Position numbers and translations under genes: made by a program. Of a stretch of 32,000 bases of DNA, positions 17,849 to 23,691 are shown piece after piece. The notes beneath the pieces are model-generated. The model did no database searches. It saw only the letters and a list, made by a program, of their open reading frames with translations, and was not told where the DNA came from. Source of the stretch: Candidatus Saccharimonadota bacterium (lineage in GTDB: Bacteria > Patescibacteriota > Saccharimonadia > Saccharimonadales > Saccharimonadaceae); assembly GCA_002421785.1 (NCBI GenBank), contig DIRZ01000003.1, forward strand, positions 180,001 to 212,000, in the 5' to 3' direction. How positions within the stretch are numbered: the stretch's first letter is position 1; every line of letters starts with the position of its first letter.

Positions 17849-19024
17849 CTACTGAATCTTGCGGTGTGAAGCAGGCTTTTTTACCGGTTGCGGCCCTGCA
17901 CCCGAGCGAGCATGCGCACTACTCGAGAATGCCTCTTGAATCTCGCGCAACACGACGCTATCGCTTGCCGTCAGCTTACCCAGTAGATATTGGTACACGA
18001 CGTCATCCCGTATAATCATAAACCGTGTCGCTTCTTCATTTACTTCGCATGAAACAATCGGCACCTTTAGTTCTTCTTCGAGGTTCAACATGTCATCGAA
18101 GCTCTTCACGGGCACAAGCCGCTTGCCGCTGAGGTCTGGAAGTTCCTTGGCTCGAATGATAATCCCGTCATGATAGCGATATATACGGTCAAGCTCAGCG
18201 CGGTAGGGTGTTTTGAATATTCGACGGCGCTGGCCTACTATCACCAAGCATAGTCCTACGGCCGCCAGCACTCCTGTAGCAATAAGTCCATACTGAACCA
18301 TTGTTGCGTGTTGCGAAACCACAGTCGTTGAAAGTACCTGCTTTACGTCATCTTTGTCGTACTTGATTGCCAGCTGATATATCTGCTGTGTTAACGGAAT
18401 AGTAATGGTCGAGGTACGCACGTCATTAAAGGCAACTCCATCGATTTCACCCCGGGCGCGAACCGTGAACGTCACAATAGCTTCTCCATTAACCGGCACT
18501 TGAAGTGTCGAGCGGTAATCGTCTATCATTTTTTTGTACTCTTCAAACGGAATTGTTACCGAATCAGAAATCAGAATATTACCCGCGCCTGCTGTTTTAG
18601 CCTTGGGGCTCACAAGCTGAATTTGCTTCAACCATACATTCGCAGCTTCATCTTCTTTTCCTGTCAATGTATACGTACCTCGAACGGTGCTTTTCACGTC
18701 GTAGGTGTAGCTAACATTCGTCGCATTCGCGCTCTGGAATGTGTATCGAAACGTCCCGGCGATGGAGTCAGTAAGGCTAGCAAGATACGCCGTATCGGTT
18801 TGTGCGGGCCCATTATCATAAAAGCTATTGTCTCGATACCCAACCGCGCCCTTTAGAGTCTGCTCGATTCGGTAGTTAGAGTCAGCACTGTCAGCGGTTG
18901 CTTTATAGCGTTGAGGTATCAGCCAAATAGCGAAGCCCGCGGCAACGAGCATACACAAAACACCAACAGTCGTTACTGTCCGCGACCGTCGCTCATATCG
19001 TTCTTTTTCGTATGTTGTCGTCAC
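17849..19024 (-). CDS. Two-TM membrane protein with an extracytoplasmic beta-rich domain and a cytoplasmic C-terminal domain (DUF5305-like topology)
   Basis: 391 aa. TM1 is 'VGVLCMLVAAGFAIWLI'. A ~215-aa T/S-rich ectodomain follows, then TM2 'YGLIATGVLAAVGLCLVIV', then a ~120-aa charged tail. It is the last gene of the SipW-like operon, and its GTG start lies 10 nt after the peptidase stop. The DUF5305 assignment comes from remembered topology and gene context only. Confidence 0.55.
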   Translation of the reverse strand: MTTTYEKERYERRSRTVTTVGVLCMLVAAGFAIWLIPQRYKATADSADSNYRIEQTLKGAVGYRDNSFYDNGPAQTDTAYLASLTDSIAGTFRYTFQSANATNVSYTYDVKSTVRGTYTLTGKEDEAANVWLKQIQLVSPKAKTAGAGNILISDSVTIPFEEYKKMIDDYRSTLQVPVNGEAIVTFTVRARGEIDGVAFNDVRTSTITIPLTQQIYQLAIKYDKDDVKQVLSTTVVSQHATMVQYGLIATGVLAAVGLCLVIVGQRRRIFKTPYRAELDRIYRYHDGIIIRAKELPDLSGKRLVPVKSFDDMLNLEEELKVPIVSCEVNEEATRFMIIRDDVVYQYLLGKLTASDSVVLREIQEAFSSSAHARSGAGPQPVKKPASHRKIQ

Positions 19025-19033
19025 TTCCTCACC

Positions 19034-20203
19034 CTACTTTGTTATTTCCCGTAACCACACTGTTGGATACCCGACAAATGGGATATACCCTCGCACCACG
19101 CCAATTATTTGCCGAGAATGTACGATAGGGTCTTCGGTGGGGCTATTATCTCCCTTAGTCACAAATACCCGTTCGCCGTTACCGGAAACATCCCTGTCGA
19201 TAGCAATCACGCGGTGCGTCATCATCTTATCTGGTGCTTCGTATTGTACAATATCGCCTACGCTTATGTCCATCGGCGCGACTTTCTGGACGACCACCAT
19301 CGACCCACGGCTATACACTGGTTGCATGCTATTCGACATTACTGCCATCGGCCGGTACGCAAACAAACCTGTCATAAACAACACTAACGCGACAATAACG
19401 GAATACATCATGACATCAAAAGCCCGGCGTGGATGCATATGGCGTCGTGCGTGCGCCGTCGGTGCATGCTGTGTCATTCTATCAATCGCCAAATATACAG
19501 CAACAGCAAGCAACATCATCGAAGCGCCAATCAAATACCAATCTTGTTTGGGAATAATTGGCGGAAGAATCGTCACCGCAACGACGCCCAATCGGTACAT
19601 AAGCTGCGACGGTAAACCCCCGGCAATAGCAAGATATGTCAAAAGGAAGCTTGCCACAAGTGACGGCAACACGTCGACAAACACCATCTTAATAGCCCGC
19701 TCCGCAGTGGTAATATCGCCAAGCTGCGCAAGGTTCATCAACGGTAGCGCGAAAACGATAGAGACAACCACGCCAAACCACACCGCGTTACGACGCCCCA
19801 CAAGGAGCAGTAATTGATGCCGCGTATATTCCATTGCCACCGCTACGCTTCCGTAAGCAAAAATGTTGAGTACAACCCCCTTCGCCCCCGCAACGAGTGA
19901 ATTGTGAGTGAATGTCAAGAAGACACCTGTCAAAAAATACAATACGAACCAAATTGCAATCACACTCCCAATCACGATAACCTTATCGCCACGATGACGC
20001 GACCGATCCTTTAGTCCGGAAGTCATGGAGCGTGCAACCAATGCAGTCCCTATAGCCAGCAACGGCTCAACAGCGTACATCGTCAAGGATACATCGATCG
20101 GTTTCATCCACTTGAGAGCCATGACCATTATCGCAACAAGCACGACAAGGCCAACTAGCGCCCATACCGCGGGCTTAACGCTCAGTAATCTCCTATACCA
20201 CAC
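19034..20203 (-). CDS. Archaeal/ER-type (SipW-like, S26B) signal peptidase I fused to a ~280-aa N-terminal polytopic membrane domain
   Basis: 389 aa. The C-terminal ~105 aa read 'VMSNSMQPVYSRGSMVVVQK..GDIVQY..MTHRVIAI..FVTKGDNSPTEDP..IIGVV'. This matches the SipW/Sec11 pattern: Ser nucleophile in SxSM, His in THRV rather than a catalytic Lys, and the KGDNxxxxD box. The N-terminal part has about 8 hydrophobic helices and no motif I recognise. The GTG start overlaps the upstream stop (TAGTG). Confidence 0.72.
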   Translation of the reverse strand: MWYRRLLSVKPAVWALVGLVVLVAIMVMALKWMKPIDVSLTMYAVEPLLAIGTALVARSMTSGLKDRSRHRGDKVIVIGSVIAIWFVLYFLTGVFLTFTHNSLVAGAKGVVLNIFAYGSVAVAMEYTRHQLLLLVGRRNAVWFGVVVSIVFALPLMNLAQLGDITTAERAIKMVFVDVLPSLVASFLLTYLAIAGGLPSQLMYRLGVVAVTILPPIIPKQDWYLIGASMMLLAVAVYLAIDRMTQHAPTAHARRHMHPRRAFDVMMYSVIVALVLFMTGLFAYRPMAVMSNSMQPVYSRGSMVVVQKVAPMDISVGDIVQYEAPDKMMTHRVIAIDRDVSGNGERVFVTKGDNSPTEDPIVHSRQIIGVVRGYIPFVGYPTVWLREITK

Positions 20204-21003
20204 TATGGCATTCCCTCTATCACATAGTTGGTCAGGACCCAGCTGGTACTGGTGGACCCCAGCGATGGCACAAACTGAAAGGTGCCACTCTTCGCGACAC
20301 TCGTCTTGCTTGTAATGATGATTTGAGAAGCCGTGGTCGTATAGTTCACAGTGGTCGGCATGGTTCGTACAGAGTTGGCAGAGCCCCAGTTAGCGGTGAT
20401 GCGCCAGCTACCCACATTAAATGCAGAGTTATTTGTGACGACGATTGTGTAGGGCCAATAGTAGTTACGCGCCACTTTTGTTCTTGCACCACGCGTCGCC
20501 GTCATCGTGAGGCCTGGAATCGCTTGATAGGTCGATGCATACAAACCAGAAATCTTCAGGTTCTGCAAAACCGACCTTTGTAGTGGAGCGGTAAACGTCA
20601 CCGTAAACGTCGTCTGGCCCCCAGGTGCCAATGTGCCGTTGCCCACGGTGCTGTTTGCCGTCACAACCATCCCCGCCTGAGCGCAGGTGACATTTGTGCA
20701 AACATGACTGGTCGTGCCGGTTGGTAAATCGTAACCCACCTGCCAACTGCCAATGCTACTTGTTCCACCGTTTGTTACCGTAAATAGCAACGAATAATTC
20801 CAACTCCCGCCAGACTGGGTAACCGTCTTGCTATACCGTACCGATAAGTTCTGGGAGCTTGTATAGGTAACGCCGCTCGTGCTCGCAGTCACCGTTAATT
20901 TTTGCGTAAAAAGAGCATACCCCGTGCTCATAAGAGCAAGGGGTATTGCGAGTATCATCACTATATCGCGAATTACGACTTTATGTCTGCGGCTGCGAAA
21001 CAC
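20203..21003 (-). CDS. Secreted protein with a SipW-cognate-type signal peptide and two CBM2-like beta-sandwich repeats
   Basis: 266 aa. The signal region is 'RSRRHK-VVIRDIVMILAIPLALMSTGYA|LFTQKL'. The two repeats resemble the GGF..V.VTNTG...I.GW.V...  layout: 'WNYSLLFTVTNGGTSSIGSWQVGYDLP...LAPGGQTTFTVTF' and 'YYWPYTIVVTNNSAFNVGSWRITANW...AKSGTFQF'. The protein is S/T-rich and has no LPXTG. The GTG start at 21003 is uncertain. Confidence 0.55.
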   Translation of the reverse strand: MFRSRRHKVVIRDIVMILAIPLALMSTGYALFTQKLTVTASTSGVTYTSSQNLSVRYSKTVTQSGGSWNYSLLFTVTNGGTSSIGSWQVGYDLPTGTTSHVCTNVTCAQAGMVVTANSTVGNGTLAPGGQTTFTVTFTAPLQRSVLQNLKISGLYASTYQAIPGLTMTATRGARTKVARNYYWPYTIVVTNNSAFNVGSWRITANWGSANSVRTMPTTVNYTTTASQIIITSKTSVAKSGTFQFVPSLGSTSTSWVLTNYVIEGMP

Positions 21004-21035: not shown

Positions 21036-21530
21036 TTATGTGTTCTGGACGTAGTTGAAGTCAATCGTTGCGTTCTTGGTAGCACCGCTTGTACCAGTTG
21101 CGGCCGCGTCCCAGGTAACAGTCACGACTGCAGTCGCCGTACCGCCCGCCGCCAAAGTATCGTTCACCGCAACACCACTTACCGAATACGTAATGTACGC
21201 AGGTGCTGATGCGTTAAGCGTTGTTAGGTCTGTGAGTGTCGAGAGCTTTGCAGGAATTGTTCCTGTATTCTCGATAACAACGTTATAGGTTGCTGTTGCG
21301 CCAGGATACTGCAGGTTCGTGCTGAACGATGCAGTTGTCGCAGTGAATGACGGTACGACTGCTTCGGTTGTACCGGTCGACGAGGTATTTGTTATGCCTG
21401 TTATTTCGACGCTCCAATCACCAGTTGCGGTACCTGTACCGTTGATCTGTAGTGATTGCGAGAAGGCTGCATACGCGACAGAAGCAAGCACCACCACAGC
21501 TAGCGCGGCAACCAGAATTTTACTTTTCAT
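21036..21530 (-). CDS. Small secreted TasA/camelysin-like protein (SipW-cognate-type signal peptide)
   Basis: 164 aa. The signal 'MKSKILVAALAVVVLASVAYA|AFSQS' mirrors the TasA junction '...GGGTWA|AFND'. The core 'YPGATATYNVVIENTGTIPAKL' matches the TasA/camelysin 'PGD..t..F.v.N.Gtl..k' strand pair. The protein is A/T/G-rich with no Cys. The SD AAAGGAAG lies upstream, with an extended -10 TGCTATAAC at 21565-21573 (-). Confidence 0.6.
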   Translation of the reverse strand: MKSKILVAALAVVVLASVAYAAFSQSLQINGTGTATGDWSVEITGITNTSSTGTTEAVVPSFTATTASFSTNLQYPGATATYNVVIENTGTIPAKLSTLTDLTTLNASAPAYITYSVSGVAVNDTLAAGGTATAVVTVTWDAAATGTSGATKNATIDFNYVQNT

Positions 21531-21606: not shown

Positions 21607-22137
21607 TTATGTATAGCGAACGAGCGAAAATGCCTGACGCCCCAGCTTCTTCCGGCCCTCGAGTCCAGCGAGCTCAATCATAAATGCCGATTCTGCTACC
21701 TTTGCGCCAGTACGTTCAATGAGTTCGAGTGCCGCCTTGGCCGTCCCGCCCGTCGCAAGTAAATCGTCAACGATGACGACGTTATCCCCGTAGCCCACGG
21801 CATCGACATGAATGTGCACTTCGTCCACTCCATATTCAAGCTCATAGGTCTGACTTATCGTAGCCCTGGGAAGCTTACCAGGTTTTCGAACCAGAACAAG
21901 CGGCACGCCCAGGCTAATCGCAAGGGGCGCACCGATAATAAACCCCCTTGATTCCGGCGCCGCAACAGCGGTAATACCCTGATCGACATATCGATCATGA
22001 AGTGCACCGATTGTATCAGCAAAAAGTTCCGGATCTTCTAAAACGGGGGTGATGTCTTTAAATATAATCCCCGGCTTAGGAAAATCAGGGACATCGACAA
22101 TCGCTTCCCGTAACCTGTTGGCTAACTGTTCACTCAT
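21607..22137 (-). CDS. apt: Adenine phosphoribosyltransferase
   Basis: 176 aa with 'PDFPKPGIIFKDITP' and the PRPP motif 'VVIVDDLLATGGTA'. A strong SD AAGGAGG lies upstream. Confidence 0.92.
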   Translation of the reverse strand: MSEQLANRLREAIVDVPDFPKPGIIFKDITPVLEDPELFADTIGALHDRYVDQGITAVAAPESRGFIIGAPLAISLGVPLVLVRKPGKLPRATISQTYELEYGVDEVHIHVDAVGYGDNVVIVDDLLATGGTAKAALELIERTGAKVAESAFMIELAGLEGRKKLGRQAFSLVRYT

Positions 22138-22192
22138 ACACCTCCTTGGTTAGTGTCTTACTTACACATTATATCCAATCATGCGTATTGTG

Positions 22193-22214
22193 GTGCTCAA
22201 TACAAATTGAGCAC
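22193..22214 (-). terminator. Hairpin (9-bp stem, 4-nt loop) abutting the yitT-like stop codon
   Basis: GTGCTCAAT-acaa-ATTGAGCAC. There is no clear U-tract on the transcribed strand, so its function is uncertain. Confidence 0.35.
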
Positions 22215-23101
22215 TAAGGGCGAGAGGGTATTTTTTTGCGAAGTGGCGAACTCGTTTCTCGATATAGCGAATTCTCGGTCATCTTGCCCATTGCCTCATG
22301 AGCTGTTGTCGTGACAATGAAGGCCCGCGGATCCACCTTACGCACTGCATTGATGACTTTCTGCTCTTCAAACCGAGTAATCACCGCCAGCATGACCCCA
22401 TGCGGCTCTCGGTCCTTCGGGTTACTCTCTTTGACATATGTCACAGGCTCTTCAATCAGCTCATTTATAAGTCCACCGAGCTTGCGCACATCAAGACTAA
22501 CGATCCACATACTACGCGACTCATCAAGCCCCTCAACAGTAACATCGATAGCTTTATGCGCAACAAAGTACGCGATGAGTGAATAGAGCGCCTGTTCCCA
22601 TCCAAACACGAAACCCGCCAGCGTAATGATAACTGCGTTAATCGACATAATCGCTTCGCCAACGGAGAACACAGTCACTCGGTCGACCAGCACGGCAACC
22701 GTGTCGGCACCGTCAATAATCCCGCCATAGCGGACGACAATTCCCACGCCGACTCCCACAATCATGCCTCCAAAAACAGCAGCCAAAATCGGAACCTCCA
22801 CGAAACCTCGTGGGATATGCACGAATGTCAAAAGCGCAAGCGTAGTGATTCCCATGACTGAGTACATAGTGAACTCTTTACCGAATTTTTTATAACCCAA
22901 AAAAACGAACGGTATATTAAATAGCAATAAAAATATGCCAAGCGGCCAGCCCGATACGTGTGCCGCGAGAATTGAAACTCCCGTTACGCCCCCGTCCAAT
23001 AAATGGTTTGGAAGCAAGAAAAACTGCAGACCGGCTGCAGTAATAATGGCCCCCATAAGTACCAACACAATTCTTTTTATGGTGTCTAATGAAATAATCA
23101 C
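22214..23101 (-). CDS. YitT-family membrane protein (DUF2179 C-terminal domain)
   Basis: 295 aa. It has five or six TM segments with 'GGVTGVSIL' and 'GGMIVGVGVGIV'. The soluble C-terminal domain has 'MWIVS...V..IN..I...VTYV...G......VMLAVITRFEEQKV...V..VDP.AF'. The start codon is uncertain: GTG 23101 directly abuts GAGGGGAGG. Confidence 0.78.
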   Translation of the reverse strand: MIISLDTIKRIVLVLMGAIITAAGLQFFLLPNHLLDGGVTGVSILAAHVSGWPLGIFLLLFNIPFVFLGYKKFGKEFTMYSVMGITTLALLTFVHIPRGFVEVPILAAVFGGMIVGVGVGIVVRYGGIIDGADTVAVLVDRVTVFSVGEAIMSINAVIITLAGFVFGWEQALYSLIAYFVAHKAIDVTVEGLDESRSMWIVSLDVRKLGGLINELIEEPVTYVKESNPKDREPHGVMLAVITRFEEQKVINAVRKVDPRAFIVTTTAHEAMGKMTENSLYRETSSPLRKKIPSRP

Positions 23102-23214
23102 CTCCCCTCATTTTTATTATTATCACTTAGTATAGCCCATTTGGCCCCTAAGCCGCAAACGCGCGCGTAGCCTGGCCGGCCACCTATGGCAGTGTCTGCC
23201 GAATTATTCTTGGT

Positions 23215-23691
23215 TCAAGGAACTAATGGTTTGTGAAGGTCAATCACTACTGAGTTCTCGCTCCCACTACGGTCAGGATAGTACCCAAGTCGTTCATAAA
23301 ATTCGAGTGCCGACTCACCAATAACACGCAGTCGAATTGAGCGCATATTTTGAATTTTACCGATTCTTTCAATAGTCTGCATGAGGGCAGATCCGACGCC
23401 AGAGCCACGGTAACGTGGGTCGACAGCAATACTCTGCACCCAAAAATCTTGCACGCCTTCATGCACAACAGCAACCCCACTCGGCATTGCGCCAACCGCA
23501 GGCTTGGCGCTTAGATTAAATCTTGCTTCATCCATGCTCTGAAGCAAGTGCGCGGCCCGTCCAACAGTTTTAAGTGGTCCACCATATATGGCAGGTTCGA
23601 TTATGCGTAGCGCGTGCAATGTATCCGGCGGAATGTCGTCAAACTGCGCGACGAAGCGAGGGTCCGGAATAGAGAGCTCACTGATAACCAC
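23215..23691 (-). CDS. GNAT-family N-acetyltransferase
   Basis: 158 aa with the acetyl-CoA motif A 'IAVDPRYRGSGVGSALMQTIE' and 'FYERLGY'. The GTG start overlaps the upstream stop (TAGTG at 23689-23693). Confidence 0.8.
   Translation of the reverse strand: MVISELSIPDPRFVAQFDDIPPDTLHALRIIEPAIYGGPLKTVGRAAHLLQSMDEARFNLSAKPAVGAMPSGVAVVHEGVQDFWVQSIAVDPRYRGSGVGSALMQTIERIGKIQNMRSIRLRVIGESALEFYERLGYYPDRSGSENSVVIDLHKPLVP

Follow-up and report, generated by a model that had tools for sequence, protein, structure and literature searches.

A Sec11-type signal peptidase fused to a predicted CAAX-protease-like membrane domain in a Saccharibacteria gene cassette

We analysed a stretch of 32,000 nucleotides (the window; position 1 is its first letter) from a Candidatus Saccharimonadota bacterium (GenBank assembly GCA_002421785.1, contig DIRZ01000003.1, positions 180,001 to 212,000) and concentrated on a gene on its minus strand (19034..20203), the 389-aa product of which joins an eight-helix membrane domain to a signal peptidase of the archaeal/endoplasmic reticulum (ER) type. 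A preliminary description of this DNA had proposed the fusion of a SipW/Sec11-type peptidase with a large polytopic domain; the fusion is genuine and conserved across phyla. On the basis of its predicted structure the N-terminal domain (N-domain) is confidently assigned to the CPBP/type II CAAX-protease fold, and two of the three CPBP catalytic motifs are absent family-wide. By analogy with two staphylococcal protein pairs, we consider it likely, at a probability of about 0.65, that the N-domain serves the fused peptidase as a membrane scaffold or gate and is not a second protease. The parts of the gene are as follows.

19034..20203, minus strand: whole gene, encoding the 389-aa fusion (CPBP-like domain with eight transmembrane (TM) helices, linker, TM anchor and S26B signal-peptidase domain); a single open reading frame (ORF) with full-length conservation in more than 120 clusters
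19469..20203, minus strand: N-domain, residues 1-245, eight TM helices, CPBP/Rce1/SpdC-like fold according to an AlphaFold2 (AF2) model and structure searches
19820..19867, minus strand: TM4 segment with Asn113 (19865-19867), Glu125 (19829-19831) and Arg128 (19820-19822), picked out by conservation, codons verified
19415..19468, minus strand: basic linker rich in His and Arg (residues 246-263), for which the charge map predicts a cytoplasmic location; predicted local distance difference test (pLDDT) of the model low, 53-78
19358..19414, minus strand: TM9, residues 264-282, the peptidase's own N-terminal anchor (hydropathy peak 2.34; aligns with the TM anchor of SEC11A/C)
19034..19357, minus strand: extracytoplasmic catalytic domain, residues 283-389 and stop codon, from the TIGR02228 match and the SEC11 alignment
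Minus strand: key residues of the catalytic domain, Ser292 (19328-19330), His330 (19214-19216), Asp352 (19148-19150) and Asp358 (19130-19132), codons verified

The ORF starts with GTG, whose first nucleotide is also the last of the upstream gene's stop codon (TAGTG), and the sequence GAGGGA lies 9 nt 5' of this start. Hydropathy resolved eight hydrophobic helices, the basic linker (246-263) and a ninth helix (264-282), and the AF2 model of the N-domain likewise has eight helices; the N-terminus of the protein would be cytoplasmic. Because helix 264-282 is the normal anchor of the peptidase, the extra domain consists of residues 1-245 plus an 18-residue basic linker. The preliminary description had placed about 280 aa with about eight helices ahead of the peptidase; its helix count stands and its boundary moves to the shorter extent given here. 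It had also reported a lack of Cys in the N-terminal region, and there is none in the whole 389-aa protein. That two adjacent genes were merged by a frameshift or an assembly error, a concern raised at that stage, has a probability close to nil: a continuous ORF of about 383-414 aa is found in hundreds of independent assemblies, including the complete genomes CP134881, CP074575 and CP130488, and the linker and TM9 align throughout among the homologues. Conservation of the single ORF in 120 listed clusters, 15 Saccharibacteria loci and 30 loci from other phyla rules out the artefact.

The AF2 model of the N-domain was built on an alignment of 80 sequences and consists of eight long helices (pLDDT 94, predicted template-modelling score 0.90). 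When this model was compared with the PDB by Foldseek, SpdC (6U0O_A) was matched with probability 1.00 and template-modelling scores of 0.55/0.58, Rce1 (4CAD) with a score of 0.51, and all remaining matches scored below 0.22. A wide VIA-align search against representative structures gave SpdC (Z 14.2, 230/248 residues, root-mean-square deviation 4.4), Rce1 (Z 12.6) and APH-1B (Z 7.9), and re-alignment of the Foldseek matches gave Z up to 12.9 for Rce1 and 8.2 and 7.8 for TMEM147. APH-1 and TMEM147 we take to be members of the CPBP/type II CAAX-protease superfamily, and APH-1 scaffolds presenilin. Outside this superfamily the wide search had the fungal ABC transporter Cdr1 as its best match, at Z 7.1, and the best of the re-aligned Foldseek list, where the ABC and MATE chains were at 5.7 or less, reached Z 5.7. 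SpdC itself resembles Rce1 (SagB-SpdC structure paper, PDB 6U0O). We trust the fold match because it extends colinearly over about 90% of the domain, lies far above background, and has a single superfamily at its top.

Sequence comparisons gave no counterpart to this structural match. No Pfam or NCBIfam model matched the N-domain of the 389-aa protein (PF02517: no match at E ≤0.1), none of 59 diverse family members matched PF02517 or any other TM family (E ≤1), and alignment by hhalign with 15 canonical Patescibacteria PF02517 proteins yielded a probability of 3.6%, that is, no sequence link. A profile search of the PDB with the broad family alignment returned peptidase matches only. Since no link was found at the level of sequence, the relationship to the CPBP proteins rests on predicted structure. 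The domain had been described as unrecognised, which holds for its Pfam and NCBIfam annotation and no longer for its predicted fold. It merits a family model of its own: it is invisible to both databases, and the proteins that carry it are annotated as 'signal peptidase I' only. Exosortase/archaeosortase and rhomboid readings were also considered and set aside: the domain has no conserved Cys or His, and these folds were not among the structural matches, although such an absence is not proof.

Conservation was assessed in an alignment of 80 sequences (A2), in a 59-sequence subset (A4), and in 31 further bacterial and archaeal sequences, five of them archaeal. Only three polar residues of the N-domain are invariant, and all of them lie on TM4: Asn113 (100% of the 80 sequences; 30/31 in the further set), Glu125 (99%; 31/31) and Arg128 (99%; 31/31). 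The last two fall within 'AMEYTRHQLL', which had already been singled out as a conspicuous polar cluster. Other conserved residues of the domain are Gly93, Pro215, Pro218 and Trp222. His or Cys columns of at least 25% were absent from the N-domain in the 80 sequences, as were columns of at least 30% in the 31 sequences, and one column had 31% His in the 59-sequence subset. Active CPBP proteases carry the motifs EExxxR, FxxxH and HxxxN/D, and depend for catalysis on the motif 2 His and the motif 3 His/Asn (PMC12260438). In the present family motifs 2 (FxxxH) and 3 (HxxxN/D) are missing throughout, and TM4 carries an invariant E125-Y-x-R128 with a spacing unlike the EExxxR of motif 1. Judged from its helix number and the colinear structural alignment, E125-x-x-R128 is probably a remnant of motif 1. 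The alignments thus agree with the earlier statement that the region lacks a CPBP His motif and an exosortase-type Cys. Rce1 (PF02517; 4CAD) accordingly offers both a likeness and a contrast: the eight-helix fold is colinear with it over about 220 residues (Z 12.6-12.9) and a Glu and an Arg are kept on TM4, whereas the N-domain is without motifs 2 and 3, has E-x-x-R as the probable remnant of motif 1, and shows no hidden Markov model (HMM) or profile similarity.

Because both His-bearing catalytic motifs are lost, we do not regard the N-domain as a second protease. The opposite view would be that it is still an enzyme, a His-independent glutamate intramembrane peptidase that uses Glu125, Arg128 and Asn113 to clear the signal peptide or to make a second cut in the subunits. 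Such a role would account for the persistence of these three residues across Bacteria and Archaea, for their position on what appears to be the helix that bears the catalytic EExxxR in CPBP proteases, and for the rank of a catalytic protein, Rce1, as second-best structural match. We nevertheless judge it unlikely, given the dependence of CPBP catalysis on the motif 2/3 His (PMC12260438) in a domain with no conserved His, the E-x-x-R spacing unlike EExxxR, and the similar remnants kept by the degenerate proteins SpdC and SpbR, which are not proteases.

The peptidase half, in contrast to the N-domain, is readily recognised. Residues 270-383 score 81.3 bits on TIGR02228 (archaeal/ER-type signal peptidase I, MEROPS S26B; cut-off 51.85, E 6.7e-23); the profile match ends at position 132 of 158, and 31 residues remain after Asp358. 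The alignment with human SEC11A/C (E about 2e-10) pairs SNSM with SGSM and THRV with VHRV, and KGDN is identical in both. The Ser nucleophile in S-x-S-M-x-P, a His (not Lys) general base, and the aspartates of GDN...D correspond to Ser292, His330, Asp352 and Asp358. These four residues and Arg331 were invariant (31/31 homologues), on which ground the peptidase half should be active; catalytic competence is thus a prediction from conservation. The TM anchor directly N-terminal of the catalytic Ser is TM9 (264-282), in which Phe276 and Gly279 are conserved. Hydropathy showed no hydrophobic segment past residue 282, and the SipW equivalog model NF046067 scored 51.3 bits, below its cut-off of 190, in a protein with no C-terminal TM helix. 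The catalytic module that the preliminary description had read from SNSM, THRV and KGDN, and the missing C-terminal TM helix that it had pointed out, were both confirmed. A separate LepB-type signal peptidase I is encoded elsewhere in the genome (TIGR02227, E 2e-32, another contig; genome 1.04 Mb, 98.6% complete), so the fused enzyme is an extra, dedicated peptidase. One canonical PF02517 CPBP protease gene and the housekeeping LepB-type gene lie about 11 kb apart in this genome (C3:160435-160698 and C3:171978-172511) and are unrelated to the cassette.

Prokaryotic signal peptidases are usually viewed as stand-alone, single-pass enzymes. Three systems provide precedents for a partnership with a CPBP-like membrane protein. 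In Staphylococcus aureus the degenerate CAAX-like eight-TM protein SpbR binds the TM helix and the ectodomain of the signal peptidase SpsB, controls which substrates are cut, and inhibits the enzyme (PMC12260438, PNAS 2025). The present protein likewise ties a degenerate CAAX-like eight-TM partner to a type I signal peptidase, in this case by fusion. SpbR and SpsB are separate polypeptides and SpsB is a P-type (Ser-Lys) enzyme of general secretion, whereas the present peptidase is fused, of the ER/archaeal (Ser-His) type, and dedicated to a cassette; sequence similarity between SpbR-SpsB and the fused peptidase was not detectable. We regard the fusion as most likely the covalent counterpart, by analogy, of SpbR-SpsB, with an ER-type peptidase. 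The second precedent is also the best structural match. SpdC orients the single-pass hydrolase SagB in a complex of 8+1 helices and does so without protease residues (SagB-SpdC paper, PDB 6U0O), so that an eight-TM non-catalytic CPBP scaffold is again paired with a single TM helix from an extracytoplasmic hydrolase. The SagB-SpdC complex has nine TM helices, eight of them in SpdC, and the fused protein likewise has eight in the N-domain plus one anchor, which speaks for a scaffold. The partner in that complex differs in being a glucosaminidase and unfused, and the sequence identity is 9%. A third precedent for the same logic is APH-1 in its role as scaffold of presenilin.

Four closely spaced genes with the same orientation make up the cassette, and the fused peptidase comes third among them (21036-21530, 20203-21003, 19034-20203, 17849-19024). 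The other three members are listed here.

21036..21530, minus strand: 164-aa secreted beta-sandwich protein with a signal helix and the junction VAYA/AFSQSLQINGTGT; in most loci the fused peptidase has homologues of this protein beside it
20203..21003, minus strand: 266-aa secreted protein with the junction GYA/LFTQKL and CBM2-like beta-sandwich repeats (PF00553 CBM_2, E 5.6e-7, residues 71-153)
17849..19024, minus strand: 391-aa DUF5305 protein with two TM helices (PF17231, E 4e-23), separated by 9 nt from the end of the fused peptidase gene

The arrangement is a constant one. All 15 Saccharibacteria loci show the order pilin gene(s), optional 266-aa gene, fused peptidase, DUF5305 gene. DUF5305 follows the peptidase directly in 14 of these 15, and in the fifteenth (L048) it is split into two ORFs; it is also directly downstream in 29/30 loci of other taxa, archaeal ones included, most of which have one to four pilin-like genes alongside. 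The 266-aa gene lies directly upstream of the peptidase in nine of the 15 loci (L043-L051); L117, a tenth of that type, was not searched for it. Both secreted proteins have ordinary Sec-type signal peptides and a common junction motif, [AG]-Y-A-x-F-[ST]-Q-x-L (VAYA/AFSQSL and TGYA/LFTQKL). We consider the 164-aa protein a probable major fibre subunit and peptidase substrate, the 266-aa protein probably a minor or tip subunit and a candidate glycan-binding protein, and the DUF5305 protein a putative accessory subunit of the peptidase, a role that has been proposed in the literature.

The 164-aa protein is rich in Thr, Ser and Ala, and its AF2 model (pLDDT 88) has a helix at residues 2-23 followed by eight strands. 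With the predicted cleavage after AYA, the mature protein would have Phe at position 2 and Gln at position 4, with 5.6% Asp+Glu and an isoelectric point (pI) of 4.05. Its top sequence matches in the PDB were two AbpX entries with non-significant E values (0.36 and 1.2) and a local YPGA...EN-GTIPA motif. A PDB profile search with 24 homologues found nothing, and the fold searches (Foldseek, VIA) returned generic Ig/PapD-like sandwiches, with Z 5.3 for AbpA and 5.4 for the 0406 thread. A firm assignment of this protein to AbpX/TasA was therefore rejected, given the empty profile search and the generic folds. From the genomic context, a donor-strand fibre of the TasA/AbpX type is plausible for it.

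Loci of this kind are already known, if barely described. One sentence of a recent preprint reports a signal peptidase I with ten TM helices at AbpX loci of bacteria and archaea, and considers DUF5305 its likely accessory (bioRxiv 10.64898/2026.01.04.697558, January 2026). The preprint does not say what the TM domain is, and the lineages that it names are Thermoproteota, Bacillota and Chloroflexota. It describes DUF5305 as a protein with a cytoplasmic domain, two TM helices and a beta-sandwich on the outside, and AbpX as having an aromatic residue at mature position 2, an acidic residue at position 4, about 15% Asp+Glu and a pI of about 4. The present cassette resembles those loci in that a many-TM, TIGR02228-type signal peptidase I stands beside DUF5305 and small secreted beta-sandwich subunits in both domains of life. 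It differs in having nine TM helices here against ten, and in coming from Saccharibacteria, which are not in the preprint's list. The 164-aa subunit is like AbpX in its aromatic position 2 and its pI, and unlike it in having Gln at position 4 and a far lower acidic content (5.6% against about 15%). The preliminary description had held that a fusion of the peptidase to such a platform would be mechanistically new for TasA-type systems; in view of the preprint it is not wholly new. What is added here is the fold assignment of the N-domain, the linkage across the two domains of life, and the occurrence in Saccharibacteria. We found no paper, in the literature searched, that links SipW-type peptidases with CPBP/CAAX domains. 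Dedicated ER-type peptidases encoded beside the fibre subunits that they process are also known from the tapA-sipW-tasA operon of Bacillus subtilis (SipW) and from haloarchaea (TafD), and TafD, too, has a DUF5305 partner, TafG. SipW has about 190 aa and both an N- and a C-terminal TM helix, TafD has four TM helices and a second extracellular domain, and both are without an eight-TM CPBP-like domain.

Under the scaffold or gate reading, the peptidase domain would strip the signal peptides from the co-encoded beta-sandwich subunits, probably by a cut after the conserved A-Y-A that exposes an A-F-x-Q-x-L N-terminus, and general secretion would be left to the separate LepB-type peptidase. The N-domain would dock TM9, hold the active site at a set height and orientation, and limit or time substrate access, and the fused peptidase may form a small signal-peptidase complex with the DUF5305 protein. 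The scaffold or gate role, the cleavage site, the complex with DUF5305 and the formation of fibres are all put forward as inferences from the comparisons above. The family represents a signal peptidase permanently coupled to a CAAX-protease-like pseudo-enzyme; if the role proposed here is right, the fusion would serve as 'Rosetta-stone' evidence that regulation of the SpbR-SpsB type is widespread and old, and tied to the assembly of TasA/AbpX-like surface fibres.

Several points weigh against this reading. The near-absolute conservation of Glu125, Arg128 and Asn113 exceeds what a passive scaffold would seem to need. The likeness to CPBP proteins lies in predicted structure only and is undetectable in sequence, and VIA-align itself cautions that chance alone can bring helical bundles to Z of about 14. 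The docking of TM9 on the N-domain is presumed, the structure predictions having covered single domains. The analogy with SpbR would extend to the partnership and not necessarily to the sign of its effect, because a permanently fused inhibitor makes little sense. Finally, the assignment of the probable 164-aa substrate to the TasA/AbpX superfamily is weak.

A more specific role for the three TM4 residues would be that of a receptor for the signal peptides of the subunits. The N-domain would then choose the substrates and pass them on to the Sec11-type site, the conserved basic M-[KR]-N-K n-region might bind from the cytoplasmic side, and the fused protein with DUF5305 would make up a self-contained prokaryotic signal-peptidase complex. 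We hold this to be doubtful. Were it true, the partnership of a CPBP pseudoprotease with a signal peptidase, so far represented by SpbR-SpsB of S. aureus, would be an ancient design common to Bacteria and Archaea. The preliminary description had raised the possibility of an export, assembly or anchoring platform; in that role the N-domain would translocate or polymerise the subunits or tether the fibre to the membrane. The strict linkage to fibre-like subunit genes would fit such a platform, as would the lack of any other obvious assembly factor within the four-gene cassette. The nearest solved folds, however, are the Rce1 protease and the non-catalytic scaffolds SpdC, APH-1 and TMEM147; the fold is not that of a transporter or secretin, and the transporter matches are all at Z ≤7.1. 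Moreover, fibres of the TasA superfamily form by donor-strand complementation and need no platform (bioRxiv 10.64898/2026.01.04.697558), the subunits have the Sec-type signal peptides noted above, and an anchoring or accessory role would suit DUF5305 better. A platform is for these reasons very improbable, and the scaffold or gate remains our preferred reading.

The family is broad. Among 5.8 billion proteins searched, 130 clusters matched at E ≤0.001. The 120 listed clusters were 316-405 aa long (mostly 386-399 aa), with 43-91% identity and a coverage of mostly 99%, and those bearing names were called 'signal peptidase I' of Candidatus Saccharibacteria or Saccharimonas. An exhaustive phmmer search with residues 1-262 found 275 representative clusters, most of them 375-400 aa at 20-28% identity. 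Eight of these were checked: six (388-835 aa) have a TIGR02228 domain at the same position, and the other two (233 and 289 aa) have cluster mates of 380 and 389 aa, so that these truncated matches look like fragments. Named members came from Bacilli, Lactobacillales, Candidatus Pelethosoma and metagenome-assembled genomes of Oscillospiraceae, to which a scan of species representatives added Clostridia, Peptococcia, Stomatobaculum and the complete genomes of the cultured Mycoplasmatota strains WC44 and zrk6. Archaeal carriers were Candidatus Methanosuratincola petrocarbonis, Bathyarchaeia, Thermoplasmatales and one unclassified archaeon. The full fused gene was present in 30 loci from other taxa, with E values for the N-domain HMM of 1e-27 to 1e-74 (archaeal members 1e-37 to 1e-45), and a tenth, C-terminal helix occurred in some archaeal members only. 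The long architecture is thus the ordinary form of a cross-domain family annotated as 'signal peptidase I', and not peculiar to this genome or to the candidate phyla radiation.

Five proteins of 205-237 aa (P0172, P0216, P0250, P0228 and P0189) matched the N-domain alone, ending variously within or just after TM7-TM8. They are probably fragments, and the two that stop exactly after TM8 could be genuine unfused forms. Neighbours of 221-235 aa in the ESM Atlas (scores 0.88-0.90) are leads only for stand-alone N-domains. One 835-aa protein from a JGI metagenome (P0209) has the eight-TM domain and the peptidase followed by about 450 extra residues with C-terminal LysM peptidoglycan-binding repeats.

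The locus is patchily distributed within Saccharimonadia: 18/400 sampled genomes have it, all of one family and belonging to 8/186 genera, as do 4/13 other sampled genomes of the window's own genus; among 301 genomes sampled across the phylum it was seen in the window's own genome alone. Saccharibacteria live attached to host bacteria, and a patchy fibre/adhesin cassette would be a plausible determinant of host attachment or biofilm formation. Several Saccharibacteria genomes contain broken or collapsed copies of the fused peptidase: L031/L039 (G600:C1:594922-595622), L032/L040 (G367:C2:113392-114119), L038 (G491:C1:586585-586938) and L134:3800-4249. Some of these are in two frames, one has in-frame TGA and TAG codons, and one is a 149-aa remnant beside a kept DUF5305 gene. 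Such copies suggest that the cassette is being lost in some Saccharibacteria lineages.

The surroundings of the cassette were compared as well. Promoter-like sites showed no excess over shuffled sequence (7 against a mean of 7.0, standard deviation 2.8), and terminator-like sites, though somewhat in excess (11 against a shuffle mean of 5.9, standard deviation 2.6), included none that marks an operon boundary. Comparison with same-genus genomes without the cassette allowed no conclusion on whether it is a clean insertion: the htpX flank was 40% identical and synteny was lost. In the same-genus genome G647 (L043) the cassette directly follows a TrpF-like gene, whereas the window has apt-like, YitT-like and GNAT genes in between (window 21607-23691); with three extra genes in one genome and none in the other, the upstream flank is variable. 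On an uncultured Clostridia chromosome (OV788638; L111:6871-7440) the fused cassette is closely followed downstream by a second, ordinary SipW-type peptidase of 189 aa that lacks the N-domain. Two Saccharibacteria genomes (G583 and G626) carry two copies of the cassette or parts of it, and at locus L056 an additional pilin-like and DUF5305 gene pair lies about 2.5 kb upstream of the complete set.

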